DNA from: Candidatus Omnitrophota bacterium
GTDB taxonomy: Bacteria > Omnitrophota > Gorgyraeia > Zapsychrales > Fredricksoniimonadaceae
Assembly: GCA_903901225.1 (NCBI GenBank)
Contig: CAIUQE010000037.1
Location: 39,885-103,884, forward strand
Reading direction: 5' to 3'
DNA length: 64,000 nucleotides
The notes beneath the pieces are model-generated. The model saw nothing but the letters and a program-made list of their open reading frames with translations. It was not told where the DNA came from and made no database searches. The position numbers and the translations under genes were made by a program. Position 1 is the stretch's first letter, and each line of letters begins with the position of its first letter. Of the stretch, positions 5,359-64,000 are shown in pieces.

Positions 5359-5371
5359 TTCCAAAATGCCT

Positions 5372-5400
5372 TTTCAAAAATTTGCGAACAACGCTATACT
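5372..5400 (+). promoter_or_regulatory. candidate promoter (TTTCAA-17-TATACT) placing the TSS at or next to the ATG at 5407 (leaderless mRNA candidate)
   Basis: -10 TATACT ends 6 nt before ATG 5407; no Shine-Dalgarno sequence upstream. Confidence 0.3.
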
Positions 5401-5406
5401 GAACTC

Positions 5407-5670: not shown

Positions 5671-5718
5671 CCTCATGGGATTGTTGCGCCGCAATTTCTT
5701 CTCTGCTATCATACGCGC

Positions 5719-7422: not shown

Positions 7423-7425
7423 CAC

Positions 7426-8175: not shown

Positions 8176-8927
8176 ACACAACGGTCCTGGTCATTCCATG
8201 TTTCAATGAAGCCGCCCGCCTCAACGGCGACGCGTTCACGGCTTTTCTTCAACGGCATCCCCATATCCATTGCCTGTTCGTCAATGACGGCAGCACGGAT
8301 ACCACGGCCGGGATACTTGATAGCCTGGCCCAAAAGTCGACCAACATCTCCGTCTTGCATCTTAAAACAAACTCAGGAAAGGCAGAGGCTGTCCGACAAG
8401 GTTTTATTAAAGCTTTTGCCATGAAGGCGTCCGCGGTCGGGTTCATTGACGCTGACCTGGCCGCCCCGCTGGAATGCGTCCCTGAACTTGAACACTACCT
8501 CATCGAACCAAGGACCGAGATCGTCATAGGCGCGCGTGTCGCGCTTTTAGGCCGTCGCATACAACGTGACGAAACGCGGCACTTTTGCGGCCGTGTTTTC
8601 GCGACGCTGGCTTCCAGAGTGCTTCATCTTCGTATTTACGATACTCAATGCGGCGCCAAACTGTTCAGGGTCACGGACCGGCTAAAAAAAGTATTCGCGG
8701 CTCCATTCTCGGTCAAATGGATCTTTGACGTGGAGATCCTCGCGAGGTTCATGATCACGGAAAAAGACGGTTATACCCTGGTGCGGGATATCTGCGTTGA
8801 ACACCCCCTGCAAACATGGACCGATATCAAGGGGTCCAAGCTCCGCTCCAGGGATTTCTTCATCAGTACGCTTGACCTGTGGAAGATCTACGTGTTAATC
8901 CAAAAAAATACCTTGCCGCCGTATTGA
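8172..8927 (+). CDS. GT2 family glycosyltransferase
   Basis: VLVIPCFNEAARL...FVNDGSTD...IDADL motifs of GT2 nucleotide-sugar transferases. Confidence 0.7.
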   Translation: MNTTVLVIPCFNEAARLNGDAFTAFLQRHPHIHCLFVNDGSTDTTAGILDSLAQKSTNISVLHLKTNSGKAEAVRQGFIKAFAMKASAVGFIDADLAAPLECVPELEHYLIEPRTEIVIGARVALLGRRIQRDETRHFCGRVFATLASRVLHLRIYDTQCGAKLFRVTDRLKKVFAAPFSVKWIFDVEILARFMITEKDGYTLVRDICVEHPLQTWTDIKGSKLRSRDFFISTLDLWKIYVLIQKNTLPPY

Positions 8928-9027
8928 GCGCGTGATAATTTAACCTCTACTTTCCGCGGAACAACAGGGTGTGTCCAGCCCACCTTATATCGTTAACTTT
9001 GAGACGAACAACACAAGGAGTTCCTGT

Positions 9028-10233
9028 ATGAAAAAGATCGGCATCCTCACATCAGGCGGCGACTGCGGCGGGCTTAATGGCGTTGTCAAAGGCGCGGCCC
9101 AAACAGCTAACAGCCTCGGGATCACCCCCTACGTCATCCCCAACGGTTACGCAGGCCTTTACAACCTCGTTGAATTTGACAAACTCACCGCGCTGACACC
9201 CGATCGCGCGGACAAGATCGATGCCAACCTGGCCGGGTCCGAAGCCGGGCACTCACGCGTGAAGGTGAAGAAGATCGAGGATCCCAAAAAATACGAACGG
9301 ATCAAGGAAGGCATGAAGAAGTTCGGCATTGACGGCCTGGTGATCTCCGGCGGCGATGACTCAGGGTCGGTCATGGTCGATCTGTTCGAACAGGGCATCA
9401 AATGTGTCCACGCGCCCAAGACCATGGACCTGGACCTGCAAACCTATTCCGTCGGAGCGGACTCCACGATCAACAAGATCGCCCAATACGTTGAAGAACT
9501 GAAGACCACCGCCTTGACCCATAACCGCGTCCTTATCCTTGAAGTATTCGGCCGCTACGCCGGTCATACCGCTTTTCGCGGTGGTGTTGCCGCTGACGCG
9601 GACGCCATCCTTATCCCCGAAATACCGACCGATTTCGACGTGCTTTACGACCACATCAAGGAACGTTATTTCGCGCGTATTTTAAAGAGCGATGTGATGG
9701 CCGGCAATTATATGATCGTTGTCGCTGAAGGCTTACGCAACATTGACGGCTCTGATATCGTGGATGAAGCCGCGGGCATTGACGCGTTTGGCCACAAAAA
9801 ACTTGCCGGCGCCGGGAAATACGCGGTCCAGGAGATCACCAGGCGCTTCAAGGCGGACCCCCAGATCAAGGACCTGATGAAGCAAACAAAGATGTATGTT
9901 GAAAAAATGAACGAGATCCCCGAGATCCGCTCCGTCGTCCCTGGCCATCTTGTCCGTTGCGGGCATTCTTCCGCGTATGACGTGTGTTTCGGCAAGGAAG
10001 CCGGCGCCGCGGCCGTCATGCTCCTTCACAAGGGGCTGGTGGGTGTCACGATCGTCGGTATTGACGGGGAAAATATCCGCTACATGGAATCAAAGAAAGC
10101 CATTGTCCAGCGCCATGTGGACCTCTCCCAGGTGGAGGTTTATGAGCAGATGGGCGTTTGTTTTGGCCGCAAGCACGGAACCTACAAACCGAAGTTTGAA
10201 CAAGTTGAAGGCAAGATAACCCGGCACCTGTGA
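9028..10233 (+). CDS. pfp: 6-phosphofructokinase, probably pyrophosphate-dependent (PPi-PFK)
   Basis: PFK family GILTSGGDCGGLN and ISGGDDSGS...APKTMDLD; residues aligning to E. coli PfkA G104/G124 are D and K, the PPi-specificity determinants; start moved to ATG 9028, which follows AAGGAG. Confidence 0.75.
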   Translation: MKKIGILTSGGDCGGLNGVVKGAAQTANSLGITPYVIPNGYAGLYNLVEFDKLTALTPDRADKIDANLAGSEAGHSRVKVKKIEDPKKYERIKEGMKKFGIDGLVISGGDDSGSVMVDLFEQGIKCVHAPKTMDLDLQTYSVGADSTINKIAQYVEELKTTALTHNRVLILEVFGRYAGHTAFRGGVAADADAILIPEIPTDFDVLYDHIKERYFARILKSDVMAGNYMIVVAEGLRNIDGSDIVDEAAGIDAFGHKKLAGAGKYAVQEITRRFKADPQIKDLMKQTKMYVEKMNEIPEIRSVVPGHLVRCGHSSAYDVCFGKEAGAAAVMLLHKGLVGVTIVGIDGENIRYMESKKAIVQRHVDLSQVEVYEQMGVCFGRKHGTYKPKFEQVEGKITRHL

Positions 10234-51950: not shown

Positions 51951-52580
51951 CTAAAAACCTGCAGGGCTCTGCCGGAATTTCACGACTGTCTGGGGATTGG
52001 CCGCAGTGCCGCTGGTCAAAGCAGCTCCGGAGACCGCTGCCCCGGCGGAAGGATCTTTACGATTGACAAGGGTCATGTCAAAATAATAATCACCCGTAGT
52101 TGGGGCCGTAGTTGCCAGAGGACGGGGAATGATCGTCGAAGAGATCGTAAATTCATCACTGACCAGCGTTCCTGAAAATGTGCCTGTATTATCGCAGGTG
52201 CCGGCGGAAGTCCCTGTATCACAGGCATAAACATTCGTTCCAACAAGCGTAAAACAGTGCCAGTTATCATCGATATAAATATTGGGCGTATATGTCCCCG
52301 AGACCTCAACATCCCTGCGAAAACAGACTGTCTTATTGCTGACATCGATTGAGATCCCGGAATTCGAAGTCGTAAGGTCGCCATGAACGCGCTTGACGCT
52401 CTGACGAATATAATCCTCCAGGGCCCTGGTCATCAGATAGACCTGAATATCACCTGTCACCTGCTTGCCGGTGCTGCGCAGTCCATATTCCGCGGCAAGG
52501 ACGCCCCCCACGACCACCGATACAATAATGGTCGCTATGATCAGTTCCGTCAGCGTCAGCGCGCGTAAACTTTTTGACAT
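51951..52580 (-). CDS. prepilin-type (class III signal peptide) protein, minor pseudopilin candidate; Ala at -1
   Basis: MSKSLRA|LTLTELIIATIIV: positive leader, hydrophobic helix, Glu at +5. Confidence 0.5.
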   Translation of the reverse strand: MSKSLRALTLTELIIATIIVSVVVGGVLAAEYGLRSTGKQVTGDIQVYLMTRALEDYIRQSVKRVHGDLTTSNSGISIDVSNKTVCFRRDVEVSGTYTPNIYIDDNWHCFTLVGTNVYACDTGTSAGTCDNTGTFSGTLVSDEFTISSTIIPRPLATTAPTTGDYYFDMTLVNRKDPSAGAAVSGAALTSGTAANPQTVVKFRQSPAGF

Positions 52581-52589
52581 AAACGTATG

Positions 52590-52937
52590 CTACCAGGTTA
52601 CCGTAATGACTACTTTCCGGGCACCAACGGAATTGGTGACAACATAGGACGCTGAGCACCCTGAGAAATCGGTATCCGTCAACCCGGAGTGGGTACCGAT
52701 CGACAAATTCCCCGCAGCCCAGGCCTGGGCATTGACATCCTTGCTCAATCCATCAAGGATCTTCTTGGCCATCAGGGAAGCATTCAACCTCCCAACACTG
52801 GAACTCTCTGTCTGTTTTAATTTAGCGATGGAGCCAAAAGCAAGCATCGCGGAACCGGCAAAAATAACAGCCGCCACGACGACTTCAACAAGTGAATATG
52901 CTTTATTGGAATAATAATGCCGTCTGAACAGTATCAT
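52590..52937 (-). CDS. prepilin-type protein; Ala at -1
   Basis: Start moved to an internal Met: MILFRRHYYSNKA|YSLVEVVVAAVIFAG with Glu +5. Confidence 0.45.
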   Translation of the reverse strand: MILFRRHYYSNKAYSLVEVVVAAVIFAGSAMLAFGSIAKLKQTESSSVGRLNASLMAKKILDGLSKDVNAQAWAAGNLSIGTHSGLTDTDFSGCSASYVVTNSVGARKVVITVTW

Positions 52938-52941
52938 ATCG

Positions 52942-53346
52942 TTATGGACACGATGAATTCGAGGTTGCACATGACGGGTTGGTTGTCGAAAGGTCAGCAT
53001 TCAGATCGACCGTGATCACATAATCCGTACTTCCGGCAGTTGAAGTAGCATTGCAGGTATTAACAGCCGCGGTTCCGGATCCGCACTTATAAGTTGCCTG
53101 GTTTGCAACAATGTTCAGGCTTAATGCTGTGTTAATGTCGGTTATGGATGCTGATCCAGTAAGATTTGAACCTGTTCTTGCTTTATAGATTACATTCGCT
53201 GCGCTGATCATGGTCAGGCTTGTGATCGCATCACGTGCCCTTGACCGCCGGGAAGTTTTTCCATAATTTGGCAGAGCAAATCCCGCCAGGATGCCAATGA
53301 TGATAACCACCAACATGAGTTCAATAAGAGTGAATGAACGACGCAT
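52942..53346 (-). CDS. prepilin-type pilin; Ser at -1; C-terminal Cys-rich tail ending CP
   Basis: MRRS|FTLIELMLVVIIIGILAGFALP; paralog of the 54851-55234 gene (both end ...TVDLNA...NP.C...CP). Confidence 0.55.
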   Translation of the reverse strand: MRRSFTLIELMLVVIIIGILAGFALPNYGKTSRRSRARDAITSLTMISAANVIYKARTGSNLTGSASITDINTALSLNIVANQATYKCGSGTAAVNTCNATSTAGSTDYVITVDLNADLSTTNPSCATSNSSCP

Positions 53347-53354
53347 CGGACACC

Positions 53355-53753
53355 TCACGGGCAAGCCGTATTAGGACAAAGTTTCTTTAAGGATGCGGTA
53401 CATGACGGACAAGTATACGCGCCTGCAGTTGAAACATAAAGCGTATAAGCACCACCCGTTCTGGTTATTCCGATATTTCCGGCCACCGAACCGGTGTTAC
53501 AATCGGGAGCTGTGTAATTTTGAGGGGTAACATCGACATCCAAAGTAGTGCAGTCGGTGCTATACGCCCCATTATGCTCGAGAGAATAACGGGCTTCAGA
53601 TGCATGCAGTAATTGTGCGGCGCTAATGGCTTCGGCAAAAACCGCGCCCTCTCTCGAACCCGTTAAACGGGGAAGCGCAACGGCCGCCAAAATCCCTATA
53701 ATAATGATCACCACTATTATTTCAATTAAAGTAAAGGCTTTGTTTTCTGCCAT
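53355..53753 (-). CDS. prepilin-type pilin; Ala at -1; four C-terminal Cys
   Basis: MAENKA|FTLIEIIVVIIIIGILAAVALP; start chosen at the Met with better RBS spacing (alternative 53780). Confidence 0.55.
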   Translation of the reverse strand: MAENKAFTLIEIIVVIIIIGILAAVALPRLTGSREGAVFAEAISAAQLLHASEARYSLEHNGAYSTDCTTLDVDVTPQNYTAPDCNTGSVAGNIGITRTGGAYTLYVSTAGAYTCPSCTASLKKLCPNTACP

Positions 53754-53780
53754 CTGCGCCTTCTTTCTCTTTAAATACAT

Positions 53781-53817
53781 ATCCCCTTGGCCAAGAGCTT
53801 GACTCGGCCAAAGGGAT
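53781..53817 (-). terminator. hairpin (12-bp arms, 1 mismatch) just downstream of the major pilin gene; attenuator/terminator candidate
   Basis: ATCCCCTTGGCC...GGCCAAAGGGAT followed on the transcribed strand by AUGUAUUUAAAG. Confidence 0.35.
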
Positions 53818-53841
53818 ATATATGTCAACAAAGAACACTTC

Positions 53842-54010
53842 CTACTGCTTCAAATTGGCAAAAATGCCCCCTTTGAGCTTGTTAACTGATCCATTTGTAA
53901 CATTAATTGTAAAGGTGATAACGTCTGCTGTTGAACCACCAAGCGATGCGGTTCCTAACGCAGAAGTTGCGCTCGCGCCAGCTACATATGTGTACACAAA
54001 AGCACCCGAG
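53842..54010. repeat. near-identical direct repeat, copy 1 (3' end of pilin gene)
   Basis: About 150 bp about 95% identical to 54423-54590; the same spurious opposite-strand ORF translation appears in both copies. Confidence 0.7.
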
Positions 54011-54252
54011 GTCGGAAACTGGAAACCTGACAGTTGCGCCGTTGTATCGCACTTAGTTATATCTTCAGAAGCTGTATAACATTCCATAATTTTATGCATG
54101 AGCGAGCCAAGAATACCGTAGGCTTCGGCTGCTTTTGAAACACTGACCTGGTTAGAAAGCTTCGGCAAAGCCACGGCAGCGAGGACACCAATGATAATAA
54201 CAACGATGATTATTTCAATGAGCGTAAAACCTTTTTTATTCTTTTTAATCAT
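53842..54252 (-). CDS. type IV major pilin / pseudopilin candidate with canonical Gly at -1
   Basis: MIKKNKKG|FTLIEIIIVVIIIGVLAAVALP; own TATAAT promoter and strong RBS; 136 aa. Confidence 0.7.
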   Translation of the reverse strand: MIKKNKKGFTLIEIIIVVIIIGVLAAVALPKLSNQVSVSKAAEAYGILGSLMHKIMECYTASEDITKCDTTAQLSGFQFPTSGAFVYTYVAGASATSALGTASLGGSTADVITFTINVTNGSVNKLKGGIFANLKQ

Positions 54253-54272
54253 AACCTTCCCCCTTTTTGTAA

Positions 54273-54302
54273 ATTATAACGATAAAAAATAAAAATTACT
54301 AA
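54273..54302 (-). promoter_or_regulatory. promoter for the major pilin gene: perfect TATAAT -10, weak -35, AT-rich upstream region
   Basis: Minus strand TTAGTA-(17/18)-TATAAT, then a 13-nt leader with GGGGAAGG RBS and ATG at 54252. Confidence 0.45.
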
Positions 54303-54422
54303 AACAAAATTTCAACTATCAAAAGTATAACTTAGAAAAATATCGATATCAAGGACTTCTTGATAAATTATTGCCTTATTTTTTTCAAAGCTAAATCATC
54401 GCACATATAATTTTGAAAAGCA

Positions 54423-54590
54423 TTATTGCTTCAAATTAGAAAAAATGCCCCCTTTAAGCTTGTTAACTGATCCATTTGTAACATTAATTGTAAAGGTGAT
54501 AACGTCTGCTGTTGAACCACCAAGCGATGCGGTTCCTGTCGCAGAAGTTGCACTCGCGCCAGCAACATATGAATATACAAAGTTAGCTGA
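54423..54590. repeat. near-identical direct repeat, copy 2 (3' end of pilin paralog)
   Basis: See copy 1 at 53842-54010. Confidence 0.7.
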
Positions 54591-54833
54591 CGACGGAAAC
54601 GCGAAACTTGGCAGTTTAGCGACGGCATCGCACTGATTCATATTTTCAGCCATTGTATAACATTCCATGATTTTACGCATAAGCGTGCCTAAAATACTGT
54701 ACGCTTCCGCGGCTTTCGCGACACTGACCTGGTTGGCCAATTTCGGCAATGCCGTAGAAGCCAGGACACCAATGATAATGACCACAATGATAATTTCGAT
54801 AAGCGTGAAAGCTTTCGTTTTAAGTCGGGTCAT
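54423..54833 (-). CDS. type IV pilin paralog of 53842-54252; Ala at -1
   Basis: MTRLKTKA|FTLIEIIIVVIIIGVLASTALP; C-terminal 40 aa nearly identical to the neighbouring copy; start moved to an internal Met after GGAGGA. Confidence 0.65.
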   Translation of the reverse strand: MTRLKTKAFTLIEIIIVVIIIGVLASTALPKLANQVSVAKAAEAYSILGTLMRKIMECYTMAENMNQCDAVAKLPSFAFPSSANFVYSYVAGASATSATGTASLGGSTADVITFTINVTNGSVNKLKGGIFSNLKQ

Positions 54834-54850
54834 ATAGTCCTCCGTAAATC

Positions 54851-55234
54851 CTATGGGCAATAAGTTCCAGAACAAAGCGGATTAGATGCCGTAACACCCG
54901 CGTTTAAATCAACAGTTGTTGAAAAATCACCACTCACCGTTGCCGTACAAAGATGTGACCCGCAAGAATACGACAACCCGTTAGGGATAATATTTAACCC
55001 GAGCCCGGAATTTATACTGCTTATACTGGAAACAACACCAGACGGGGCAAAATTATACCCGTTCTTTGATTTATAGATCGCGTTCGCGCCGCAGACAAGA
55101 GAAAGATTAGCGATCGAATCGCTGGCTTTGGCTCTTTTTATTGTTTTTGAAAATCCCGGCATAAAGAAAGCCGCCATGATCCCAATGATCACAACAACCA
55201 GCAACAGCTCAACAAGTGAAAAAGCTTTACGCAT
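54851..55234 (-). CDS. prepilin-type pilin; Ala at -1; C-terminal CP motif
   Basis: MRKA|FSLVELLLVVVIIGIMAAFFMP; paralog of the 52942-53346 gene. Confidence 0.55.
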   Translation of the reverse strand: MRKAFSLVELLLVVVIIGIMAAFFMPGFSKTIKRAKASDSIANLSLVCGANAIYKSKNGYNFAPSGVVSSISSINSGLGLNIIPNGLSYSCGSHLCTATVSGDFSTTVDLNAGVTASNPLCSGTYCP

Positions 55235-55393
55235 CGCACACTTCACAGACATAGCCGCCAACCTCACGGGACAACTTTGTCAAATGTCCAAATAATCATG
55301 AAGATCTAAATGCCAACAATGATACGCACATGTCAGCATCTAGCCCCATTACAAATATAAACCATTATAATGATGTTAACAAGCCCGGAACGC

Positions 55394-56626
55394 CTACCCG
55401 GTGGCCAAGGTTAGAATGGGCATGAACATGGCCGTAACGATCACGCCGATGATAGAACCCATGAATACGAGCATGACCGGCTCAATGACAGAACCGAACG
55501 CTTTCATGAATGTTTCAATGTTCTTCTTATAATAAACGGCAACATGATTCAACATTTTTCCCAATTCACCTGTTTCTTCACCAACACGGATCATTTGAAC
55601 GGCCATGGGAGGAAAAAACCCGCTTTGTTCCATAGGCTCGGCCAGCAACCTCCCCTCACGGACGCCTTCCCGGATCCGCTTGATGACTTCGGCACAAATC
55701 AAATTATCCACCAGGCGTTCTGAGATTTCCAAGGCATAAAGGATCGGTACGCCGCTATCCACGAGGATCGCCATTTGAGAGGTGAATTTTTCAACCACAA
55801 TGAGTTTGATCGTTTTGCCGAACACGGGCAAGCGAAACAAAAAAGCCTCAAATTGCCGACGGCCAGGGCCGGCGCTAACATACCCCTTGAACATGAAGAC
55901 AGCCGCTGCGATCCCTCCGGCCAGAAGGATAAACTTTTCCTTGACGACCTTGAAGACAAACAAAAGCCATGTCGTGATGCCGGGTAACGTGGCATGCATG
56001 TCATTGAATATTTTCTCAAAGGTAGGGCCGATAAATATGGCAAAGAAAAGTATGGCCGCCGAACAAATAAAACAAAGGACCATGGGATAGACCATGGCAC
56101 CCAGAATCGCGGAACGGAACGCGGCCTCCTGTTCCATGTATAACGTCAATTGAAGGAGGACTTTAGGCATGGTTCCCGAAGCCTCTCCCACTTCCACAAG
56201 GCTGACCCAGAACGGCGAAAAAACTTTTGGATATTTGGACAAAGCACGGCTGAAGGACTGCCCCTGTTCGACATCACGAATAGCGGCATCAAGAACATTG
56301 GCGAGCTCACGACTCTCAACCTGTTGCGAGATAACCGTGAGCGATCGCAATAACGGGACACCCGCCTCGATCATGGTCGCCAATTGCCGCGCAAAAGATA
56401 CAATGTCCTCCAAAGAAACACCGCCGCGAGTGAACTTCCTTATGGATTCACCCTGAGAGATATCCGCTCTGACGGCAGGGGCAAGGTCAGATTGTTTTTT
56501 TACTCCGGTAACAAAAAGGCCCTTGGCCTGAACCTCTTGAACGGCGCGATCGCTCGCATCCGCTTCAACTACCTCGTTAAAGATACGTCCGGACATGTCT
56601 TTGGCTGTTACCAGGAATTTTGACAT
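55394..56626 (-). CDS. gspF: type II secretion / type IV pilus platform protein (GspF/PilC family)
   Basis: 410 aa; two T2SSF repeats each followed by TM helices. Confidence 0.85.
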   Translation of the reverse strand: MSKFLVTAKDMSGRIFNEVVEADASDRAVQEVQAKGLFVTGVKKQSDLAPAVRADISQGESIRKFTRGGVSLEDIVSFARQLATMIEAGVPLLRSLTVISQQVESRELANVLDAAIRDVEQGQSFSRALSKYPKVFSPFWVSLVEVGEASGTMPKVLLQLTLYMEQEAAFRSAILGAMVYPMVLCFICSAAILFFAIFIGPTFEKIFNDMHATLPGITTWLLFVFKVVKEKFILLAGGIAAAVFMFKGYVSAGPGRRQFEAFLFRLPVFGKTIKLIVVEKFTSQMAILVDSGVPILYALEISERLVDNLICAEVIKRIREGVREGRLLAEPMEQSGFFPPMAVQMIRVGEETGELGKMLNHVAVYYKKNIETFMKAFGSVIEPVMLVFMGSIIGVIVTAMFMPILTLATG

Positions 56627-56636
56627 AGAGTACTCC

Positions 56637-58355
56637 TTATCCGATCGTCACGCCAAGTATCTCATCCAGGCTTGTGACACCCTCTTCAACCTTCTTGATC
56701 CCTGTTTCAAAAAGAGTCGCCATCCCGGCCTGACGGGCAGCATCACGCAATTCCGAATAAGGGGCATTCTTGCCTATCAAACGCCTCATATTATCATCCA
56801 CTAACAGGACCTCGGCAACCACCAAACGGCCTTTATACCCCGTGTGAGAACATTTATCGCATCCCTTGGCCCGGTAGATCAGGTCAGTGGCAAGTTTTAC
56901 CTCTCCTAACTCATCGGGTTTTGGCTCATACGCTTCTTTGCAACTGGGACAAAGTTTCCGGCCAAGCCGCTGAGCGACGATCATGGTCAACGAGGGCGTC
57001 AAAAGATAAGAAGGAACGCCAATGTCCAGCAAACGTGAAATAGCGGATGGGGCGTCATTCGTATGCAGCGTGGAAAGCACAAAATGGCCCGTCAAAGCCG
57101 CGCGCGCGCATATCTGCGCGGTCTCAAGATCACGCACCTCCCCCACCATGATAATATCAGGGTCCTGACGCAAAAAAGAGCGTAACGCTTCGGCGAAGGT
57201 GAAACCAATATCCGGCCGAACATGAACCTGATTAACCCCATCGATACGAAATTCAACGGGGTCCTCCGCGGTCATGATATTTTTGGAAGGGGACATGACC
57301 TCGCCAAGACAGGAATACAATGTTGTTGACTTTCCGCTACCGGTGGGGCCAGTTACAAAAAACAAACCATAAGGGGTCTGTAAGGCCTTGCGGATAATAA
57401 CCAGCTGCTTGGCATCAAACCCCAGGATCGACAGGTCTAAGCGGATGGCATCTTTATCAAGAATACGCATAACGATCTTCTCACCCCACACCGTGGGAAG
57501 AGACGACACGCGAAGATCGACCGTGCGATTTTCAAGCTTCGCCGAGATACGGCCATCCTGAGGCAAGCGCCTTTCCGCGATATCAAGCTTAGCCAGGATC
57601 TTCACGCGAGAAACTATATGCTGATGAAGATGTTTGCCGGGAGGAGGGATCTGATAAAGCTCGCCATCAATACGATACCTGAGCTCGATCTTGTCTTTGA
57701 AGGGCTCAATGTGAATATCACTCGCACGCTCATCTATGGCCTGGCGAATAATGAGATCCACAAGTTTAATAACAGGCGCTTCTTCAGCCCTGGCGATAAG
57801 CCTGTCAAGGCTGAGTTCGGTTTCAGATACTTCATCACTGGAAATACTATCGTTGGATGAGGTTGATCGCGCCCGTTCAACCGCCTTTCCCCACATAGTC
57901 GCGTTGAGATCCTCTGCTGCAAGATAAAAATCTGAAATGGCCTTGATAAGGTCCGAACGGGTCGCGATGACAAAATTGATGTCACAATTTGTCATCTTCT
58001 TCAAATTGTCGATCATGATAAGATCAAAAGGATTAAAAATAGCACAGGTCAACGAGTTGATATTGCGGCTAAGCGGGAGGACCAAATGTTCTTTCGCGTA
58101 TTCATAAGGGACAAGCTTGCCAAGTCCCTGGTCTTTCTGTGGAACAAGAAGACCGGAAGCTTTCGAAGCATAAGGGATAAGGAGCTGCGTCCCCAGGGCA
58201 CTGGCCAAATCTTCTTCCTGAATAAGGCCTTTTTTTAATAACAATTCACCCAGATGCCCTTTTTCGGACTTCTGACTTTCAACGACATCCTGAAGCTGGG
58301 CCTCGGTAATAAGGCCCTGCTTGATCAAAATTTCGCCAAGCCTTAACCTTGCCAT
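56637..58355 (-). CDS. gspE: type II/IV secretion ATPase (GspE/PilB/MshE family) with N-terminal MshEN-type c-di-GMP-binding domain
   Basis: Walker A GPTGSGKSTT, Asp box, His box, tetra-Cys CPSC...CDKC; N-terminus has two copies of the RLGxx[LVI][LVI]xxG[LVI][LVI]x4[LVI]x3[LVI]xxQ motif. Confidence 0.9.
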   Translation of the reverse strand: MARLRLGEILIKQGLITEAQLQDVVESQKSEKGHLGELLLKKGLIQEEDLASALGTQLLIPYASKASGLLVPQKDQGLGKLVPYEYAKEHLVLPLSRNINSLTCAIFNPFDLIMIDNLKKMTNCDINFVIATRSDLIKAISDFYLAAEDLNATMWGKAVERARSTSSNDSISSDEVSETELSLDRLIARAEEAPVIKLVDLIIRQAIDERASDIHIEPFKDKIELRYRIDGELYQIPPPGKHLHQHIVSRVKILAKLDIAERRLPQDGRISAKLENRTVDLRVSSLPTVWGEKIVMRILDKDAIRLDLSILGFDAKQLVIIRKALQTPYGLFFVTGPTGSGKSTTLYSCLGEVMSPSKNIMTAEDPVEFRIDGVNQVHVRPDIGFTFAEALRSFLRQDPDIIMVGEVRDLETAQICARAALTGHFVLSTLHTNDAPSAISRLLDIGVPSYLLTPSLTMIVAQRLGRKLCPSCKEAYEPKPDELGEVKLATDLIYRAKGCDKCSHTGYKGRLVVAEVLLVDDNMRRLIGKNAPYSELRDAARQAGMATLFETGIKKVEEGVTSLDEILGVTIG

Positions 58356-58360
58356 AAGCC

Positions 58361-59839
58361 TTACCTGTTATATCCCGCCCGCTCATCCGCGCGATCAAGT
58401 TCCATCTGGATAGTATCCGATCGTTGAGGCCCGGAAGTTTCGCGGTCTTGCGCATTCACGACCGCGTTCTTGTTTGCTTGGTAGCCGGCATCAGAGGACA
58501 GAATATGCGGCGTGATAAATATAACAAGCTCACGATCAGTGGTACTGACTGATTTATGACGAAAAAGACGACCCATGATCGGGATATCCCCCAAAATAGG
58601 GACTTTGGTGGATGTGGTATTGTTAACGGCACGCAATAGGCCTCCAAGAACAAAAGTCTCTCCGTCACGCACCCGCATCATCACCTTTGCCCCGCGTGTT
58701 TCGGGGTCTTTAAATCCGGCGAACGCGGAATCTCTGACCTCAATGACCTTGGGGGAAACGGCGATCATGATCTCCCCTGACAGCAGGTTGATCTGCGGCG
58801 TGACCGTAAGAATTACACCTGTTTCATAGCGCTCAGCCGTATTCGTTGTGACCAATGTCGTCCCCGAACCTGAATTGGTCGAAGTCACACCGATAACCTC
58901 ATTGGTGGATATCTGTATCTGCGCTGTTTCATTATTCAATGTCAGTAGACGTGGCCGCGCCAGCGTCTTTGTGTCTGTTTTAGTCGTCAAAAACTGCAAA
59001 GCGGCAGAGAACGCTTGGCCGTTCATAACCCCCCTCGAATAAGTTGTTCCCATCGCGCCGTTATTCAACGCATCCTTTTGGCTCAACGGCCATAAAAAGT
59101 CATTGCCACCCAACCCCTGAATGTTATAAAGCGTAGCACCAAACTTAACCCCCATCTGCTGAAGTGCCGACTTGGACGTGTCGATCATTTCAACCTGGAT
59201 AAGCACTTGCGGTATGGATACATCAAGTTTGGCAATAATGCCTTCAATAGCTGGGAAATTCTCTTCCAAAGCCGTTATGACCAAACTATTCGTGCGCAGA
59301 TCAGTCACGATCTTGCCCCCATCACCAACGACCGATTGCAATGCAGATACAATATCGCCACCTGTACCGGCACCTGCAGCCGCTGCCGCCCCGGTCGCCG
59401 TTGGATCAGTAATTGATATCGTTGAAAGAACTTTGGACCCGGGCAAAGCGGTATATTTCAAAGGATACACGCGCGTTGCTGTCTTTTTTACCAGAGTTAG
59501 TTGCGGTGTCACAAAGAAGATATTCGACCGCGCATCATATGTGAACTTAAGATCGTTTGCCGTTAAAACTTTATCCAGCGCCACCTCAACAGGGACATCG
59601 TTAAGAAGCACTGTCACAGTCAAGTTCTTAACAAGACTTGAAAGAATAAAATTTGATCCAATCTTTTTAGAAAAAACCTTCAAAACATCTTTAATATCCG
59701 CATCTTTAAAATCAAGGGATATCACCTTCGAATATTGCGCAAGAAGAAAAGGGCTGCCCTGGTCCGGATCAGCCGCAAAAGAACCCGTCACGCCAATAAA
59801 AAACAGGATAATGGATATAATGGCTGGGCTTTTCTTCAC
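58361..59839 (-). CDS. secretin (GspD/PilQ family), short form
   Basis: Signal peptide, N0-like domain (ISLDFKDADIKDVLKVFSKKIG), secretin_N repeats, C-terminal secretin domain; 492 aa. Confidence 0.85.
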   Translation of the reverse strand: MKKSPAIISIILFFIGVTGSFAADPDQGSPFLLAQYSKVISLDFKDADIKDVLKVFSKKIGSNFILSSLVKNLTVTVLLNDVPVEVALDKVLTANDLKFTYDARSNIFFVTPQLTLVKKTATRVYPLKYTALPGSKVLSTISITDPTATGAAAAAGAGTGGDIVSALQSVVGDGGKIVTDLRTNSLVITALEENFPAIEGIIAKLDVSIPQVLIQVEMIDTSKSALQQMGVKFGATLYNIQGLGGNDFLWPLSQKDALNNGAMGTTYSRGVMNGQAFSAALQFLTTKTDTKTLARPRLLTLNNETAQIQISTNEVIGVTSTNSGSGTTLVTTNTAERYETGVILTVTPQINLLSGEIMIAVSPKVIEVRDSAFAGFKDPETRGAKVMMRVRDGETFVLGGLLRAVNNTTSTKVPILGDIPIMGRLFRHKSVSTTDRELVIFITPHILSSDAGYQANKNAVVNAQDRETSGPQRSDTIQMELDRADERAGYNR

Positions 59840-59846
59840 TTTCTCC

Positions 59847-60320
59847 TCATTCGTTATTAAAAGATGTCGTAAATTTCTCTTCCTTGAATAAGAACACGAT
59901 GCCTTTTTTTTCTATCTTAAATATTTTTGCACCGGCGACAATTTCACCCTCCTGAAGCACCTGCCCATTGATAACGGCTACAGGATGCTCACCATCATAT
60001 AAAACCCCCGTGATCTTCATATCGGGAAGAACAACTTTTTGCTTGACTGGCGGCGGCGCCTTAACTTTAACAACCCGGGGTGGTATCGCCTTCTTCGCCT
60101 CCTGCATTAATTTAGTTTCACGCGCACGCCGGGCCTCATTGATACGTTGCATAAAAAGATCAAAAAGCTCAGGGACTTGGGTCTTGATGCTAAAAGGATC
60201 CATCAAGGAAGATTCTGTCTTGTCTTCAGGGGGTGGATTTTCCTGGGCTAAAGCCGACACTCCCTGTCCATGGTACAGAAAAAAGCAAAGTACGATAATA
60301 GTATATAGGCAACGCCGCAT
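59847..60320 (-). CDS. PilP/GspC-like lipoprotein-type secretin partner
   Basis: Signal peptide MRRCLYTIIVLCFFLY; C-terminal KITGVLYDGEHPVAVINGQVLQEGEIVAGAKIFKIEKKGIVFLFK resembles the PilP/GspC beta-domain; start moved to an internal Met to limit overlap. Confidence 0.45.
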   Translation of the reverse strand: MRRCLYTIIVLCFFLYHGQGVSALAQENPPPEDKTESSLMDPFSIKTQVPELFDLFMQRINEARRARETKLMQEAKKAIPPRVVKVKAPPPVKQKVVLPDMKITGVLYDGEHPVAVINGQVLQEGEIVAGAKIFKIEKKGIVFLFKEEKFTTSFNNE

Positions 60321-60324
60321 ATTA

Positions 60325-61020
60325 CTATTTTTTTTGAAGATTTTTTTTGTCATTCTCCACCAATGCGATTGACGCGACATCCAGGATCATTGACAACGAG
60401 AACTTCGTCTGATTCTCGGCAACAGCGGTCTGATCGTCCCTCATTTCAAATTCGTTGATGCTGGAGTTAATCGAACAGGAATTCACCTTAACGAAGTGTT
60501 TCCCTTTCTCCAGGTCACGCACAAAAGCCAACGCATCCTGAAATGTCATCCCTGAACACAAAAATCTGATGCTCACCGTACGAAAAAAACCGCTGGACGT
60601 TCTGCGAACGGGCTCAAATGAATTGATCTGGATATTAAGATCTGTTGCTGTTTGCGTAATAAAAGATACCAGATCAGCGTCGGATAAAGCCAGCGGGATC
60701 GTCCCCACAAAAGCCTTCCTGGCCTTGAGCGCATCCTGATACTCACGAACAGGAACCTCCTTGGCCAACAGCGCAGAAACTTTCATCTTATAATCGGAAT
60801 ATTCGCTATAACGAACATTTGCCGTAATCGCAGCCCAGATCAAAAAAACAATAACAATGATCAAATAAAGGACCAGGGCTTGCTTCTCGTTAATGAACTC
60901 CCTGAGATCTTCAGGCTTTAAGTTCTTTATGTTGTAAAGTAATTTTTTGAGATCATCGACAGAAACACTTGAGAAGCGACCGGGGTCGATCTTGAACTTC
61001 TTAAGATCAGGAGTATTCAT
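60325..61020 (-). CDS. PilO/GspM-like bitopic assembly protein
   Basis: Cytoplasmic N-terminus, single TM (LVLYLIIVIVFLIWAAI), about 160-aa periplasmic domain; position between the PilMN fusion and the PilP-like gene. Confidence 0.45.
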   Translation of the reverse strand: MNTPDLKKFKIDPGRFSSVSVDDLKKLLYNIKNLKPEDLREFINEKQALVLYLIIVIVFLIWAAITANVRYSEYSDYKMKVSALLAKEVPVREYQDALKARKAFVGTIPLALSDADLVSFITQTATDLNIQINSFEPVRRTSSGFFRTVSIRFLCSGMTFQDALAFVRDLEKGKHFVKVNSCSINSSINEFEMRDDQTAVAENQTKFSLSMILDVASIALVENDKKNLQKK

Positions 61021-62666
61021 TTCCCCTCACATGCGATCGAAAAGGCAACGATCTTATTTTGGGTAGCTTTGAATTCTTTAGCAATAACTCCGGAAAGTTT
61101 TATGTTCTTGAAAAGAGAAGACATCATGGCATCAGCTTGCAACGTATCAACAAAAACATTAACAAGCACATACGTTTCATTAAGATCACGCGAATACGCC
61201 GACCCGGAAAAGGTCATTCTTACAATTGTTTTAAGGGATGTGTAGGCCGAAACGGGCAAGCCATCCAACGCGTCGGATTGCTCTGTTGGATTTTCAACGG
61301 CGGCTGTTTTGTCATCAAAATCAACCTGGACATTTTCTATCCATATCCCCTTAGGAACAAGGCTCGCGAATCTGGCAACAAACGGCTCCATGCGGCTTTT
61401 TAAAGGCAGCTTCTTGAGTGCGGTCAGTTTTTCTACTTCTTCAAGAGTTTTTTTCTGAGCTTCTTCCTGTGTCAAGTCCGGACTGGTGCTCAAACGTTCA
61501 GAAACAGCCAGGAACTGGTCACGCACTGTCCTGACAAGCTCGCCGCCGCCCCATGAGGTCAGGACCATCAAAAACACACAGATAACCCCGATAACAACCG
61601 GGAGAATGAGCTGGCGATTCCTTTCCAGTATTTCATCTTTCTTCAAGGAAACCTGACGGGAAGCCCCTTCAGAAAGATTAAAGTCAATGACGGATGGGAC
61701 CGTGCCCGCAAGAGCTGCCCCGAAAGCAGCAACCTCACCCACGTCTGTCACATTGGACAGTCCGAGCTGACGCAAAGGATCAACAATATCGACGGGCATA
61801 CCTATATCTTCGCTCAACCCTGACCAGAAAGACTGGTTCAACCCGGAAGAAAAAATGATGATCTTGTTGATGTCTTCATTCTCATGCTGGCGCGAAAAAA
61901 ACTCAAAAGACATCCTGACCTCATTGAACAATTTCATGCGAGACACTTCTTCATTACCCTTGGGAACAGGCAACGGCAACAGCGCTGAGGCCAACTCCGG
62001 CATGATCTGGACTTTAAAATCCCGAATGAATTTTACATGGCCTTTCGAGGTGATGATCAGCGATCCGGAATCTTTGGAAGTCAGGAGGATCGCCGTCACC
62101 TGCGAAGGCTCGATCTGCTTTTTAAAGATCAAGGACCTGATCAAACTGGTCGGACCTGGCTCACTGTAAACAACGTTAAGCCCGGATTGTGAAAGGACAT
62201 TCAGATACCTTTGAAAAACATCCTTGCGAATGGCAACAAAAAGTATCCCGATCTGCCGCGCATCGCCCTTGACCAGGGTTGTTGGATAATATGTATACGC
62301 CATCTCATCGATCGGGAAAGGAGTATATTTCTTTGCTTCATACGCGACAACATCCTGGATCTCACTGGTTTTCATCCACGGAATAACAAACCAGCGGATC
62401 AAAACATCTTTGGAAGGAATGGAAAAATATGTTTCAAGGACCGAAAAGCCTTTGTTCGTGACCGCTTTCTGGATGGCATCAAGAAAAGAGGGGTCATCAA
62501 AATCGGGGTTCCCGCCCGCATCAGGCTTCAAAAGGGAGGAAAATGGCACAAACGCGGAAATTGTCGCCGCATCCCGATCCACTTCAACAAAGCTGAAGCC
62601 GGTTTCTCCCCAATGAAGACCGAGTCGTTTACGATTGCTGGGCATGTGTGTTATCCATAAAATCAA
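61017..62666 (-). CDS. PilM-PilN fusion (GspL-like): cytoplasmic actin-like domain, TM helix, periplasmic domain
   Basis: 549 aa; about 340-aa N-terminal region with the PilM/FtsA-like ATPase fold pattern, TM LILPVVIGVICVFLMVL, about 190-aa C-terminal periplasmic region. Confidence 0.55.
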   Translation of the reverse strand: MILWITHMPSNRKRLGLHWGETGFSFVEVDRDAATISAFVPFSSLLKPDAGGNPDFDDPSFLDAIQKAVTNKGFSVLETYFSIPSKDVLIRWFVIPWMKTSEIQDVVAYEAKKYTPFPIDEMAYTYYPTTLVKGDARQIGILFVAIRKDVFQRYLNVLSQSGLNVVYSEPGPTSLIRSLIFKKQIEPSQVTAILLTSKDSGSLIITSKGHVKFIRDFKVQIMPELASALLPLPVPKGNEEVSRMKLFNEVRMSFEFFSRQHENEDINKIIIFSSGLNQSFWSGLSEDIGMPVDIVDPLRQLGLSNVTDVGEVAAFGAALAGTVPSVIDFNLSEGASRQVSLKKDEILERNRQLILPVVIGVICVFLMVLTSWGGGELVRTVRDQFLAVSERLSTSPDLTQEEAQKKTLEEVEKLTALKKLPLKSRMEPFVARFASLVPKGIWIENVQVDFDDKTAAVENPTEQSDALDGLPVSAYTSLKTIVRMTFSGSAYSRDLNETYVLVNVFVDTLQADAMMSSLFKNIKLSGVIAKEFKATQNKIVAFSIACEGK

Positions 62667-62717: not shown

Positions 62718-63065
62718 CTAATAAGAAACGGTCGTGTCGATCCTGGTCGTCCCTGAGGGTCCCGCGCTCGCTGTACTCGTGAATGTGACAGTATACGTCC
62801 TGCTGCCCGCAATCCCGCCGGTAGAACTGGGCGTGGGCTCGGAATAATCAGAGGGAGGAACACCGCCATTCTGATACCCTCTCCAGAAAGCTCCCTTGGC
62901 CAGTATTTCCGCCTGAATATGAGCCGCCTGGCTCTCCGCGATCGCGGCCTTGCTCAGGTAACGGCTTACCGTCCCTAATGTAATAAGAGACATTACCAAG
63001 ATCGCCGCAATAACAATGACCAAGACCAACCCTCTGTCTTTCCGAAAAATCCCGGCATCAAGCAT
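62718..63065 (-). CDS. GspK-like minor pseudopilin candidate (Gly -1, no Glu +5)
   Basis: Start moved to an internal Met: MLDAGIFRKDRG|LVLVIVIAAILVMSLITLG resembles GspK N-termini (RGVALIxVLLxVAxLT); short (about 115 aa). Confidence 0.3.
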   Translation of the reverse strand: MLDAGIFRKDRGLVLVIVIAAILVMSLITLGTVSRYLSKAAIAESQAAHIQAEILAKGAFWRGYQNGGVPPSDYSEPTPSSTGGIAGSRTYTVTFTSTASAGPSGTTRIDTTVSY

Positions 63066-63300
63066 CGTCTTCCTCCGTGTAGCTTGAACAAATGGAACAG
63101 CGTAATATTTTTCTGTGAAGGTAATCAACGCACACATGTCCGCAATACGGACATTGCCTGACATGGTCGGTCAAATCTGCGTTCACATCAAAATTATCCA
63201 CACCTTGATAATGCTCACACCACATCAAAGCAACATAAAAAACAACGAAAGCTGCAAAAAGAAAAGCCCCTGCCGCAAAAGAGACATCCATTTTGATCAT
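63058..63300 (-). CDS. small membrane-anchored zinc-ribbon protein (hypothetical)
   Basis: N-terminal TM FAAGAFLFAAFVVFYVALMW then CPYC...(16)...CSIC; 80 aa. Confidence 0.35.
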   Translation of the reverse strand: MIKMDVSFAAGAFLFAAFVVFYVALMWCEHYQGVDNFDVNADLTDHVRQCPYCGHVCVDYLHRKILRCSICSSYTEEDDA

Positions 63301-63716
63301 CGCCGGTCCAAGCGTAATTTTATGCCCCCTTCCAGCGGCGCCTCATCTAGATGAGCATCAGTCTTGGGCATGTTCGCCTGATCAGGTTCGACGCGCTCAC
63401 CGAGGAAGCGCGGAATAAGCTCATCGGGACGCGGCAACAAATCCTCCGCCTGGCCTGGCTTCTCGACTTGAATGCCTCGTCGCCAGTTATCCTCGTGAAC
63501 ACCATTACCGTAATAAAAGCGGGGCATCCCAAGATCGACGACGGCTGCGGGCTGAACTCTCGACGACGAAACCTCCTGATGCCTGAGAATAGCGCCCAAA
63601 AAGACATAGTTGATCCGGTAAATGTCCTGAGTTCCCCTGACCGTCAATGTAAAACAAGCTAAAACAGCCACATGGATCAAAAAAGATATGCCGGCGTTAC
63701 GGTACAACAACATCAC
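63297..63716 (-). CDS. hypothetical membrane-anchored protein (possibly a short TonB/TolA-like partner of ExbD)
   Basis: N-terminal TM, Pro/Glu-containing linker; lies directly downstream of an exbD/tolR-like gene; weak. Confidence 0.2.
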   Translation of the reverse strand: MMLLYRNAGISFLIHVAVLACFTLTVRGTQDIYRINYVFLGAILRHQEVSSSRVQPAAVVDLGMPRFYYGNGVHEDNWRRGIQVEKPGQAEDLLPRPDELIPRFLGERVEPDQANMPKTDAHLDEAPLEGGIKLRLDRR

Positions 63717-64000
63717 TCTTCTCTGTCTGTAGCCAGGTTGATGGTTGAAAAGCCAAGGCTACGGCCCATATCCCATATCTCCACCACCCTGCCAATTGAA
63801 GCGCGCCGGTCCGCTTGGATAAGAACCGACCGGGAGTCAGTCCTGGCCGAAGCAAGAAAATTTCTCAATTCCAGCAAGGTAACTATTTTATCATGAACGT
63901 ACACGATATTCTCACCTGTAACAACTATTTTTATATCTTTCCCGCTGGCCATGTCGCTCGTGATCGCTTTCGGAAGCTTAACCCCGAACGGCGTGGACAA
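63713..64000 (-). CDS. ExbD/TolR family biopolymer transport protein (5' end outside the window)
   Basis: C-terminal periplasmic domain pattern ...SVLIQADRRASIGRVVEIWDMGRSLGFSTINLAT. Confidence 0.6.
   Translation of the reverse strand: MSTPFGVKLPKAITSDMASGKDIKIVVTGENIVYVHDKIVTLLELRNFLASARTDSRSVLIQADRRASIGRVVEIWDMGRSLGFSTINLATDREE

Follow-up and report, generated by a model that had tools for sequence, protein, structure and literature searches.

A single polypeptide of 542 aa, encoded on the (-) strand of the window (the whole stretch of 64,000 nucleotides, or 64 kb, analyzed here) by a gene at 61017..62645, with its ATG at 62645 and its stop codon at 61017-61019, is very probably a genuine end-to-start fusion of pilM and pilN. 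This protein, referred to here as PilMN, would serve at the inner membrane as the 'alignment/assembly' subunit of a type IV filament machine. The machine is conserved across the whole phylum Omnitrophota, and the literature annotates it as a type IVa pilus (T4aP). Judged by its sequence, PilMN is PilM plus PilN, and not GspL. In the literature on Omnitrophota T4aP clusters we found no mention of a PilM–PilN fusion.

Domain composition of PilMN

The N-terminal half (residues 1-313; 61707..62645, (-) strand) was recognized as a cytoplasmic PilM-like actin-fold domain by PilM_2, TIGR01175, profile searches of PDB sequences, and Foldseek. Specifically, the window protein scored 38.7 bits against Pfam PilM_2 (PF11104; cut-off 27), a model that also matched 28 of 28 homologues, and it aligned with TIGR01175 at E=5e-18 and 65 bits, under the 133-bit trusted cut-off of that model. 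Among PDB sequences, the family profile retrieved M. xanthus PilM (3jc8, E=1.8e-18) and T. thermophilus PilM (2ych, E=1.3e-11). The actin-like fold was confirmed because the AF2 model (pLDDT 76) matched PilM structures in Foldseek at E values around 1e-17: the ten best matches were all PilM (5eou, 5eq6, 5eox, 5eoy, 3jc8, and 2ych; E 7.5e-18 to 7.7e-16), and the next were FtsA (~1e-11) and EpsL-cyto (4e-11). Moreover, the model reached TM scores of 0.65-0.71 against PilN-bound PilM structures (5eou, 2ych, and 3jc8) and of 0.58-0.60 against PilN-free PilM. The actin-like, PilM-type N-domain that a sequence-only reading of this DNA had proposed was thus borne out by PilM_2 and by structure prediction, with PilM as its closest relative, but its size was overestimated at ~340 aa, the domain having ~313 aa. 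Approximately 29 residues are absent from a shortened region, where M. xanthus PilM holds a larger insert. Unlike PilM as its family is defined, which is a separate soluble cytoplasmic protein, this domain is covalently joined to PilN.

A single transmembrane (TM) helix follows at residues ~346-366 (61548..61610, (-) strand), which in family proteins form the only strongly hydrophobic 19-aa window and which lie within a long helix placed by AF2 over residues 335-385. The basic residues in the stretch ahead of it, KKDEILERNR, imply an N-in/C-out topology. The remainder of the protein (residues 367-542; 61020..61547, (-) strand) is the periplasmic PilN part, composed of a coiled-coil helix and a ferredoxin-like alpha-beta-beta-alpha-beta-beta domain, with a disordered, variable insert between beta1 and beta2 (~residues 448-470).

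Pfam PilN (PF05137) gave the window protein 15.2-17.2 bits, under its cut-off of 22.8, and matched 66 of the 76 family members (best E=2e-10). Because the window protein alone lies under this cut-off, the PilN assignment rests on family-level profiles and on the fold. A family profile extending from the junction to the C-terminus matched M. xanthus PilN among PDB sequences with E=1.1e-7 over PilN residues 4-141, and the alignment ran collinearly from residue 4 (RINLLP) across the TM helix, the coiled coil, and the first half of the domain. This broader profile superseded a narrower C-domain profile built from 20 sequences, which among PDB sequences retrieved only M. xanthus PilN, at a non-significant E=0.85. 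Hence both the TM helix and the PilN-like periplasmic domain anticipated from the sequence were recovered. As in PilN, an (R/K)-I-N-L-L-type motif is followed by a single TM helix, which leads through a coiled coil to a periplasmic domain with a ferredoxin-like fold, and on these sequence comparisons the C-terminal part is a whole PilN that includes the N-terminal docking motif.

The junction motif and its probable docking to PilM

The two halves meet at a motif, V-I-D-F-N-L-S-E-G (residues 318-326; 61668..61694, (-) strand), that was delineated by alignment, the PilN profile, and pLDDT, and that is separated from the last PilM helix by five residues (313-317). Its family consensus was [IV]-[KD]-[FILV]-N-L, with the N present in 61 and the L in 63 of 76 sequences, and distant clades had KIKINL/VRINL (K-I-N-L) at this position. 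In the profile search, the motif aligned with RINLLP, residues 4-9 of M. xanthus PilN, and the alignments identify it as the PilM-docking motif from the N-terminus of PilN, kept in the fusion. The spacing between the last PilM helix and the motif was fixed in 73 of the 76 sequences, and the stretch between the motif and the TM helix varied from 15 to 38 residues. In the AF2 monomer model, the motif had a pLDDT of 82-88. A search of the literature for an INLLP motif in PilN returned none.

By analogy with PilM·PilN and GspL, we infer that the motif most likely docks in cis. The retained (K/D)-(I/F)-N-L motif would sit in the PilM groove, most likely that of its own chain, and would in this way turn the PilM–PilN contact into a permanent one at a 1:1 ratio. 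Alternatively, the motif may enter the PilM domain of a neighboring subunit, such that the fusion would drive head-to-tail polymerization of the cytoplasmic ring. The invariant five-residue spacing fits a geometric constraint of either kind, and PilM forms rings in the machine according to the 3jc8 architectural model. Nevertheless, we consider docking in trans unlikely: the AF2 monomer already orders the motif region, the model most resembles PilN-bound conformers of PilM, and an engineered single chain, PilM:PilN(1-12), which is ~15 residues longer than PilM, proved stable and was crystallized (5eou), in a binding mode that may be cis or trans.

The remaining steps can be outlined by the same analogy with PilM·PilN and GspL. 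The cytoplasmic actin-like domains of PilMN would form a ring under the membrane, to which the platform protein and the PilB/GspE-type ATPase would dock. The connection would run across the membrane along the TM helix and the coiled coil, and the ferredoxin-like domain would pair with the PilO/GspM-like protein.

The PilM nucleotide site

In T. thermophilus PilM, Lys-26 has a role in ATP binding, and an in vitro result is available for K26A in Thermus (PMC6325625). The equivalent position was S, N, T, or G, and never K, in the 76 aligned sequences from the phylum. Additionally, the acidic position of the first phosphate loop (T. thermophilus E19/D; LG(L)D/E-IG) was occupied by Y in 54, F in 10, H in seven, and C in two sequences (n=76). 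With the ATP-binding residues of PilM replaced across all 76 aligned sequences, nucleotide binding appears to have been lost, and the PilM domain would dispense with it as GspL does. The cytoplasmic domain of GspL probably does not bind nucleotide, judging from EpsL structures. These replacements support the view that the PilM nucleotide is dispensable, in agreement with the in vitro K26A result and with GspL. Moreover, a phylum-wide fusion in which the ATP site is lost supports the view that PilM and PilN stay in permanent, stoichiometric contact and that this contact is not a regulatory one.

Gene neighborhood

The operon order, conserved among related loci, was pilMN, pilO-like gene, HR-domain gene, secretin, ATPase, platform protein, and pilins, all on the (-) strand. 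The gene following pilMN (60325..61020) begins with an ATG that overlaps the stop codon of pilMN (ATGA), an arrangement suggestive of translational coupling. Its product, a bitopic PilO/GspM-like protein of 231 aa, matched T2SSM_b (E=4.7e-4), PilO (E=2.7e-3), and GspM_XpsM (E=8e-5), with all three scores under the respective cut-offs, and the gene was syntenic in related loci. The hhalign alignments between the PilN part of PilMN and this PilO-like family were collinear but weak (probability 16-62%) and are not taken as a sign of paralogy.

Next in order is an HR-domain protein (59847..60320) of 157 aa from the called start (maximal ORF 177 aa), which matched Pfam T2SSB, the GspB HR domain, at 29.3 bits (cut-off 28.4), and did not match the PilP HMM. 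It was syntenic in nearly all loci that reach past pilMN. The GspB HR domain has a fold common to GspC-HR and PilP, and all three bind the secretin N0 domain (PMC9239104); the protein in the window is probably a linker to secretin N0 of the PilP/GspC/GspB class. Separate PilO-like and PilP-like partner genes, as previously proposed, were therefore present, but the first is only weakly PilO/GspM-like and the second is best matched by GspB.

The secretin (58361..59839; 492 aa) matched Pfam Secretin (E=3.6e-40) and Secretin_N, and scored 203 bits as PilQ and 197 bits as GspD, both under cut-off. It is followed by a PilB/GspE-type extension ATPase (56637..58355; 572 aa; T2SSE E=2e-137) that scored 626 bits as PilB and 588 bits as GspE and that carries at its N-terminus an MshEN c-di-GMP-binding motif (NF053729, 55 bits; cut-off 38). 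The PilC/GspF platform protein (55394..56626; 410 aa; T2SSF E=3e-57) scored 331 bits as GspF and 302 bits as PilC. Finally, seven pilin or pseudopilin genes (51951..55252; 115-209 aa) all had the N_methyl motif and included two near-identical pilins of 136 aa encoded in tandem; none of the seven matched the GspG-K or PilA/V/W/X families. The description of the partners as T4aP-like was not clearly upheld, with the core components scoring about equally against T4aP and type II secretion system (T2SS) models and falling under trusted cut-offs.

Upstream of pilMN, three small conserved membrane proteins of 115, 80, and 138 aa (62718..63713, (-) strand; gene calls) follow ExbB/ExbD. The first has a pilin-like hydrophobic N-terminus without Glu5 and the second is Zn-ribbon-like. 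A weak ComGG-like match (E=0.013) was obtained among them, and they were syntenic in related loci. Synteny with ExbB/ExbD was observed phylum-wide, and might be a sign that the machine is coupled to a proton-motive-force motor.

Pilus or secretion machine

PilMN could, in principle, be the functional GspL of a T2SS-like machine that secretes folded proteins by means of a short periplasmic pseudopilus, in which case the fusion would reflect T2SS identity. The GspL-like architecture ascribed to the protein from its sequence was indeed found in full, with an actin-like domain in the cytoplasm joined through a TM helix to a ferredoxin-like domain in the periplasm, as in GspL (EpsL/XcpY/PulL), and the lost nucleotide site points in the same direction. 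The PilO-like protein scores slightly better as GspM/T2SSM_b, and the HR protein and the platform protein score best as GspB and GspF, respectively. Moreover, a second, PilB/PilT-like (retraction) ATPase was found neither in the 64-kb window nor within 10 kb on either side in ~80 related loci, and T2SS is thought to descend from a T4aP that lost PilT, PulL being equal to a PilM-PilN fusion (PMC10191384). Additionally, secretion/pilus genes flank giant putative effector genes of Omnitrophota (bioRxiv 10.64898/2026.06.07.730766).

However, the searches with T2SSL, PilM_2, and PilN models that the sequence-only reading had recommended did not retrieve GspL. T2SSL (PF05134) matched one of 28 members, at E=0.19 only, no GspL model in NCBIfam, TIGR gspL included, matched the window protein at E<=0.1, and no GspL chain was retrieved from PDB sequences by the family profiles at E<=10, as opposed to PilM_2, which was above its cut-off, and PilN, which matched at the family level. 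PilM structures likewise matched PilMN better than EpsL-cyto did (E 1e-17 vs 1e-11). The T2SS partners at the locus were limited to a GspB-type HR domain and a weak GspM-like match. GspG/H/I/J/K models matched none of the seven pilins, and GspC, including any GspC-type PDZ protein, and other T2SS hallmarks were absent from the locus. The ATPase scored higher as PilB than as GspE, and a PilT gene may lie in another part of the genome. Furthermore, T4aP clusters are reported to be near-universal in Omnitrophota, where they are classed as T4aP, and to be expressed in V. archaeovorus (PMC10066038). Overall, we regard the identification of PilMN as a T2SS GspL as improbable. The filament built by this machine may serve adhesion to host cells, the role proposed in the literature, or secretion, both being compatible with the data.

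Integrity and distribution of the fused gene

In the ORF list of the window, the pilMN reading frame was uninterrupted over 61017..62666 (-). The single frame described earlier as a 549-aa ORF was therefore correct except for its start: the TTG at 62666 lies 21 nt too far upstream, and the conserved start Met, from which 28 of 28 homologues align, is the ATG at 62645, giving the 542-aa product MPSNRKRLG... This exact protein corresponds to database entry P0001 and occurred on at least 18 independent contigs from several samples and assemblers. Among Omnitrophota species-level loci, 75 of 80 had a single fused ORF of 505-550 aa, with identity down to ~21-25%. The family comprised 502 representative clusters at 50% identity (E<=1e-30), and the best 150 of these 502 matches were nearly all full-length. 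An internal restart that would yield a separate PilN was considered and dropped, there being no Met near the PilM–PilN junction in the window protein and no conserved start-like residue there in the family. That a sequencing or assembly error, or a hidden frameshift, had joined separate pilM and pilN genes is exceedingly improbable, because the same protein is found on these 18 or more contigs, is fused in 75 of 80 loci, and recurs in ~500 clusters, the absence of a junction Met also stands against it, and at the level of assemblies neither the frameshift or stop between the halves for which a check had been advised nor any other support for an artefact was found.

The fusion also bears on annotation. 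The database name of the protein is currently only "PilM", although its actual content is PilM and PilN in one chain, and pipelines that score Omnitrophota T4aP clusters would otherwise report PilN as missing.

Relationship to T4aP, GspL, and other fusions

Both halves of PilMN are sequence homologues of the separate PilM and PilN of T4aP (M. xanthus 3jc8; T. thermophilus 2ych/4bhq; P. aeruginosa 5eou/5eox). The likeness extends to the actin-like and ferredoxin-like folds, to the N-terminal (R/K)INL(L) motif of PilN, which PilMN keeps, and to the operon order M, N, O, linker, and secretin. In contrast to T4aP, the two proteins are covalently joined, K26 and the acidic phosphate-loop residue are replaced in 76 of 76 Omnitrophota sequences, ~29 residues that M. 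xanthus PilM has are missing from the PilM domain, a disordered insert is present in the PilN domain, the linker encoded at the locus matches GspB-HR and not the PilP HMM, and no PilT is nearby.

PilM and PilN together are regarded as equivalent to GspL (PMC4471445, PMC10191384). By sequence comparison, the traits that PilMN appears to have in common with GspL are the fusion itself and the loss of the PilM ATP-binding residues, whereas a sequence relationship to GspL/T2SSL models was not detectable. PilMN keeps the PilN docking motif, which may set it apart from GspL. A tentative reading, which we consider rather doubtful, is that the family is a surviving intermediate-like state between split PilM/PilN (T4aP) and GspL (T2SS), because it is fused, nucleotide-free, and without a nearby retraction ATPase, yet is PilM plus PilN by sequence with a docking motif at fixed spacing. 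If this were the case, a type IV filament machine with a secretin could do without a reversible PilM–PilN association and without ATP binding by PilM, and the family would offer a natural experiment and a tractable single-chain subject for the structure of the PilM–PilN interface.

The suggestion that such a fusion is the defining feature of T2SS GspL did not hold, since the C. difficile T4aP has a natural PilM–PilN fusion (Melville & Craig 2013, as cited in PMC6916266). According to the description given there, this is likewise a natural single-gene fusion in a T4aP-type machine, and the monoderm D-[MILF]-N-type motif that is proposed there for the PilM–PilN contact resembles IDFNLS in the window. 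The C. difficile system differs in being monoderm, without a secretin or HR linker, whereas the Omnitrophota machine is of diderm type with a secretin. PilMN is a real, ordinary, and well-conserved variant that is modestly new, fusions of this kind being already known. It reveals no new kind of machine, and GspL and the C. difficile fusion already make the same points.

Finally, the N-half of PilMN matched the Amuc_1101 / MUL2B 'PilM-like pilus complex protein' family of Akkermansia (NF045709, 608-aa model) at E=1.2e-14, but its 54 bits, compared with the family cut-off of 650, show that it is not a member and is at best remotely related. The PilN parts of six of 76 PilMN relatives also matched this model (best E=5e-5), one of them at model positions 371-476. 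In NCBIfam scans, none of ten distant C-terminal halves matched the Amuc_1101 model, and a second set gave one weak match. The matches of both halves suggest that the Amuc_1101 family has the same PilM–TM–PilN-like layout. The Akkermansia locus, which has been implicated in mucin use (PMC13174399), also encodes a secretin, Amuc_1098.

A PilM-PilN fusion fixed across Omnitrophota

The minus-strand gene pilMN (61017..62645) encodes a PilM domain (about residues 1-313) and a PilN part in one polypeptide of 542 aa (PilMN). The sequence-only reading had put the fusion at 549 aa, and the minus strand at 61017..62666 was indeed an ORF without interruption that counts 549 aa from a TTG in the ORF listing. 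We set the gene at 61017..62645 because all homologues start at the Met seven codons downstream of that TTG (MPSNRKRLG...), and because an entry in the public protein collection (P0001) has 100% identity to the 542-aa product from the ATG at 62645. The single-polypeptide fusion seen in the sequence alone is confirmed. At least 18 contigs, drawn from several samples and from two assembly sources, carry the identical PilMN protein, which at the level of assemblies excludes a frameshift or sequencing error. The pilMN stop codon overlaps the start ATG of the gene that follows (ATGA), a usual sign of what would here be translational coupling.

Thirty database clusters, with identity down to 35%, were all about 515-565 aa in length, and the named entries among them were 'pilus assembly protein PilM [Candidatus Omnitrophica]'. 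When one genome per species was scanned, 210 species held a relative. Matches in the best 80 of these, almost all labelled Omnitrophota/Omnitrophica in their record titles, with some 'uncultured Planctomycetales', spanned query residues about 1-540 at identities down to 21-25%; by our own ORF extraction, 75 of these 80 loci held a single ORF of 505-550 aa, the remainder being cut by contig ends. Finally, an exhaustive HMMER search over 1.84 billion representatives returned 502 clusters at E<=1e-30, and the best 150 were nearly all full-length (500-556 aa). Based on length and coverage across clusters, loci and representatives, the fusion is an ancestral, phylum-wide trait, and an Omnitrophota genome is the most likely source of the window.

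Fusion had been regarded as the defining feature of GspL, but it is not unique to GspL: a natural PilM-PilN fusion is documented for the T4aP of C. difficile in a passage of PMC6916266 citing Melville & Craig 2013. Additionally, the N-terminal half of PilMN matched the Akkermansia Amuc_1101/MUL2B 'PilM' family (608-aa model, E=1.2e-14), and in 6 of 76 relatives the PilN part by itself matched the same model, one of them at model positions 371-476; this family probably has the same layout. PilMN is thus a fusion of a known kind with T4aP precedents, and we reject it as a new system type. In Omnitrophota, T4aP clusters are near-universal, are expressed in V. archaeovorus, and have a proposed role in attachment to host cells (Seymour et al. 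2023, PMC10066038). The main text of that study mentions neither PilM nor a fusion, and our literature search found no Omnitrophota-PilM link of relevance. As far as the literature found shows, fixation of the fusion across an entire diderm phylum is new, as are the retention of a PilN docking motif at invariant spacing and the loss of PilM nucleotide-binding residues. PilMN can help annotation, and it offers a natural test for ideas on PilM-PilN dynamics.

The PilM half and its nucleotide site

PilM is the closest relative of the N-terminal half. Pfam PilM_2 scored 38.7 bits on PilMN (cut-off 27), and TIGR01175 matched residues 63-312 (E=5e-18), under its trusted cut-off. In the PDB sequence search, the family profile matched PilM of M. 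xanthus (3jc8, E=1.8e-18), T. thermophilus (2ych, 1.3e-11) and P. aeruginosa, and no GspL chains. The actin-like fold proposed earlier was recovered in an AF2 model from a 28-sequence alignment (mean pLDDT 76), for which the ten best Foldseek matches were PilM structures (E 7.5e-18 to 7.7e-16), followed by FtsA (about 1e-11) and EpsL/GspL cytoplasmic domains (4e-11 to 1e-8). Superposition gave TM scores of 0.65-0.71 with PilN-bound PilM (5eou, 2ych, 3jc8) versus 0.58-0.60 with PilN-free PilM.

ATP binding by this domain has likely been lost, as judged from replaced residues and an altered loop in the HMMER alignment. The counterpart of T. thermophilus PilM K26 is S18 in the window protein, and across 76 Omnitrophota sequences this position held S, N, T or G, never K. 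In the first phosphate loop (LGLD/EIG), H11 takes the place of the acidic residue (family: Y 54, F 10, H 7, C 2), and the second Gly-rich loop reads RDFKVQ versus RDvtIGG in M. xanthus. About 29 residues of M. xanthus PilM past the latter are absent, replaced in the AF2 model by a low-confidence loop (residues 212-228). Such a loss is plausible functionally, since K26A PilM retains PilF binding and, in combination with PilN, stimulates PilF (PMC6325625).

The PilN half and the junction

The C-terminal half comprises an entire PilN, from its first residues onward. Directly past the last PilM helix, residues 318-326 (VIDFNLSEG) are among the best-conserved stretches of the family, with a phylum consensus of [IV]-[KD]-[FILV]-N-L (N in 61 and L in 63 of 76 sequences) and distant-clade versions such as ...KIKINLI..., ...KVRINLA... 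and ...KIRLNLI.... A profile (A3) running from this motif to the C-terminus in 76 sequences matched M. xanthus PilN (E=1.1e-7); the alignment opened with the motif opposite PilN residue 4 (RINLLPVRAV...) and stayed collinear across the TM helix and coiled coil and over the first half of the periplasmic domain. Pfam PilN matched 66 of the 76 members (best 2e-10), while the window protein alone reached 17 bits, under the 22.8 cut-off. Only one segment (about residues 346-366) is strongly hydrophobic, and basic residues precede it, which indicates a PilM-in/PilN-out topology.

Structure comparison of the C-terminal part retrieved the expected fold, with scores of 9.1 for the XcpY/GspL periplasmic domain, 8.7 for T. 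thermophilus PilN, and 8.3 for both PilO and the EpsL periplasmic domain; Foldseek with the same model was uninformative. By fold alone, PilN and the GspL periplasmic domain are inseparable. The GspL-like reading stands for architecture, which PilMN has in common with GspL, and fails for identity, since its descent is from PilM plus PilN. With its fixed fusion, retained docking motif and lost nucleotide-binding residues, PilMN combines T4aP and GspL traits in a mosaic.

The residue count from L312, the conserved leucine in the last PilM helix, to motif N323 was the same in 73 of 76 sequences, and the motif-to-TM linker ranged from 15 to 38 residues; pLDDT was 82-88 for the motif and 55-68 for the following linker. 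PilM binds the N-terminus of PilN (PDB 2ych; PMC6325625), and a single-chain construct, PilM:PilN(1-12), which exceeds PilM by about 15 residues, has been crystallised after engineering (5eou). We infer that the motif still fills the groove of PilM, with docking in cis as the simplest arrangement; docking in trans, into the PilM of an adjacent subunit, is a live alternative.

The PilN-like domain carries, between its first two strands, a disordered acidic/low-complexity insert (about residues 448-470; 61236..61304, minus strand; pLDDT below 50) of variable length; in the homologue P0006 it is rich in Lys/Ala and longer by up to about 22 residues.

Operon and partner genes

On the minus strand, three small membrane proteins and pilMN are followed by a 231-aa PilO/GspM-like protein (T2SSM_b 4.7e-4, PilO 2.7e-3, XpsM 8e-5, all sub-threshold), a 157-177-aa protein with a GspB-type HR domain (T2SSB 29.3 bits, cut-off 28.4), a 492-aa secretin, a PilB/GspE ATPase with an MshEN c-di-GMP motif, a PilC/GspF platform protein, and seven small pilins with N-methyl motifs but no match to GspG-K or PilA/V/W/X families. 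This order was kept in essentially all related loci. The partners had been called T4aP-like; in fact, T4aP and T2SS models scored every core component nearly equally (ATPase, PilB 626 versus GspE 588 bits; platform, PilC 302 versus GspF 331; secretin, PilQ 203 versus GspD 197), such that they are not specifically T4aP-like. 'PilP-like' was right for function class and wrong for sequence family, as the GspB HR domain has the fold of GspC-HR and PilP and binds the secretin N0 domain (PMC9239104).

No second PilB/PilT-type ATPase or PilT-type retraction ATPase was present in the 64-kb window, or within 10 kb on either side at loci L005-L084, which carry pilMN relatives. Among the window ORFs scanned with Pfam (part of the window), there was no prepilin peptidase, nor the 'symbiotic' F-type ATPase that often adjoins Omnitrophota T4aP clusters (Seymour et al., PMC10066038); the rest was housekeeping (AlaRS, HisD, TrpE, SecDF, Mfd, GatA/B, RecA) plus a histidine kinase.

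The ATPase (56637..58355, minus strand) carried an N-terminal MshEN-type motif (NF053729 55 bits, cut-off 38; Pfam MshEN E=3e-14), and the machine is probably regulated by c-di-GMP. Tandem 136-aa pilin genes (53842..54252 and 54423..54833, minus strand), near-identical in their C-terminal halves (phmmer E about 1e-65), probably represent a duplication and are candidates for the major pilin; related loci had 1 to 4 copies.

Immediately upstream of pilMN, on the same strand, were genes for an 828-aa TPR protein, ExbB, ExbD and the three small membrane proteins (62718..64000, minus strand; 5371..9928 in locus L001). Of the 62 Omnitrophota loci that extend 3 kb or more upstream, 54 had TPR, 38 ExbB, 37 ExbD, 29 the 80-aa gene and 24 the 115-aa gene. 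A Ton/Tol-like proton-motive motor is possibly linked functionally to the pilus machine. The small proteins comprised 138 aa, 80 aa (Zn-ribbon-like) and 115 aa. The last (62718..63065, minus strand), just upstream of pilMN, had a pilin-like hydrophobic N-terminus RGLVLVIVIAAILV, with no Glu at position 5, no N_methyl match, and a weak ComGG-like match (E=0.013); this makes it a possible minor pilin of the GspK/PilX type, encoded away from the other seven.
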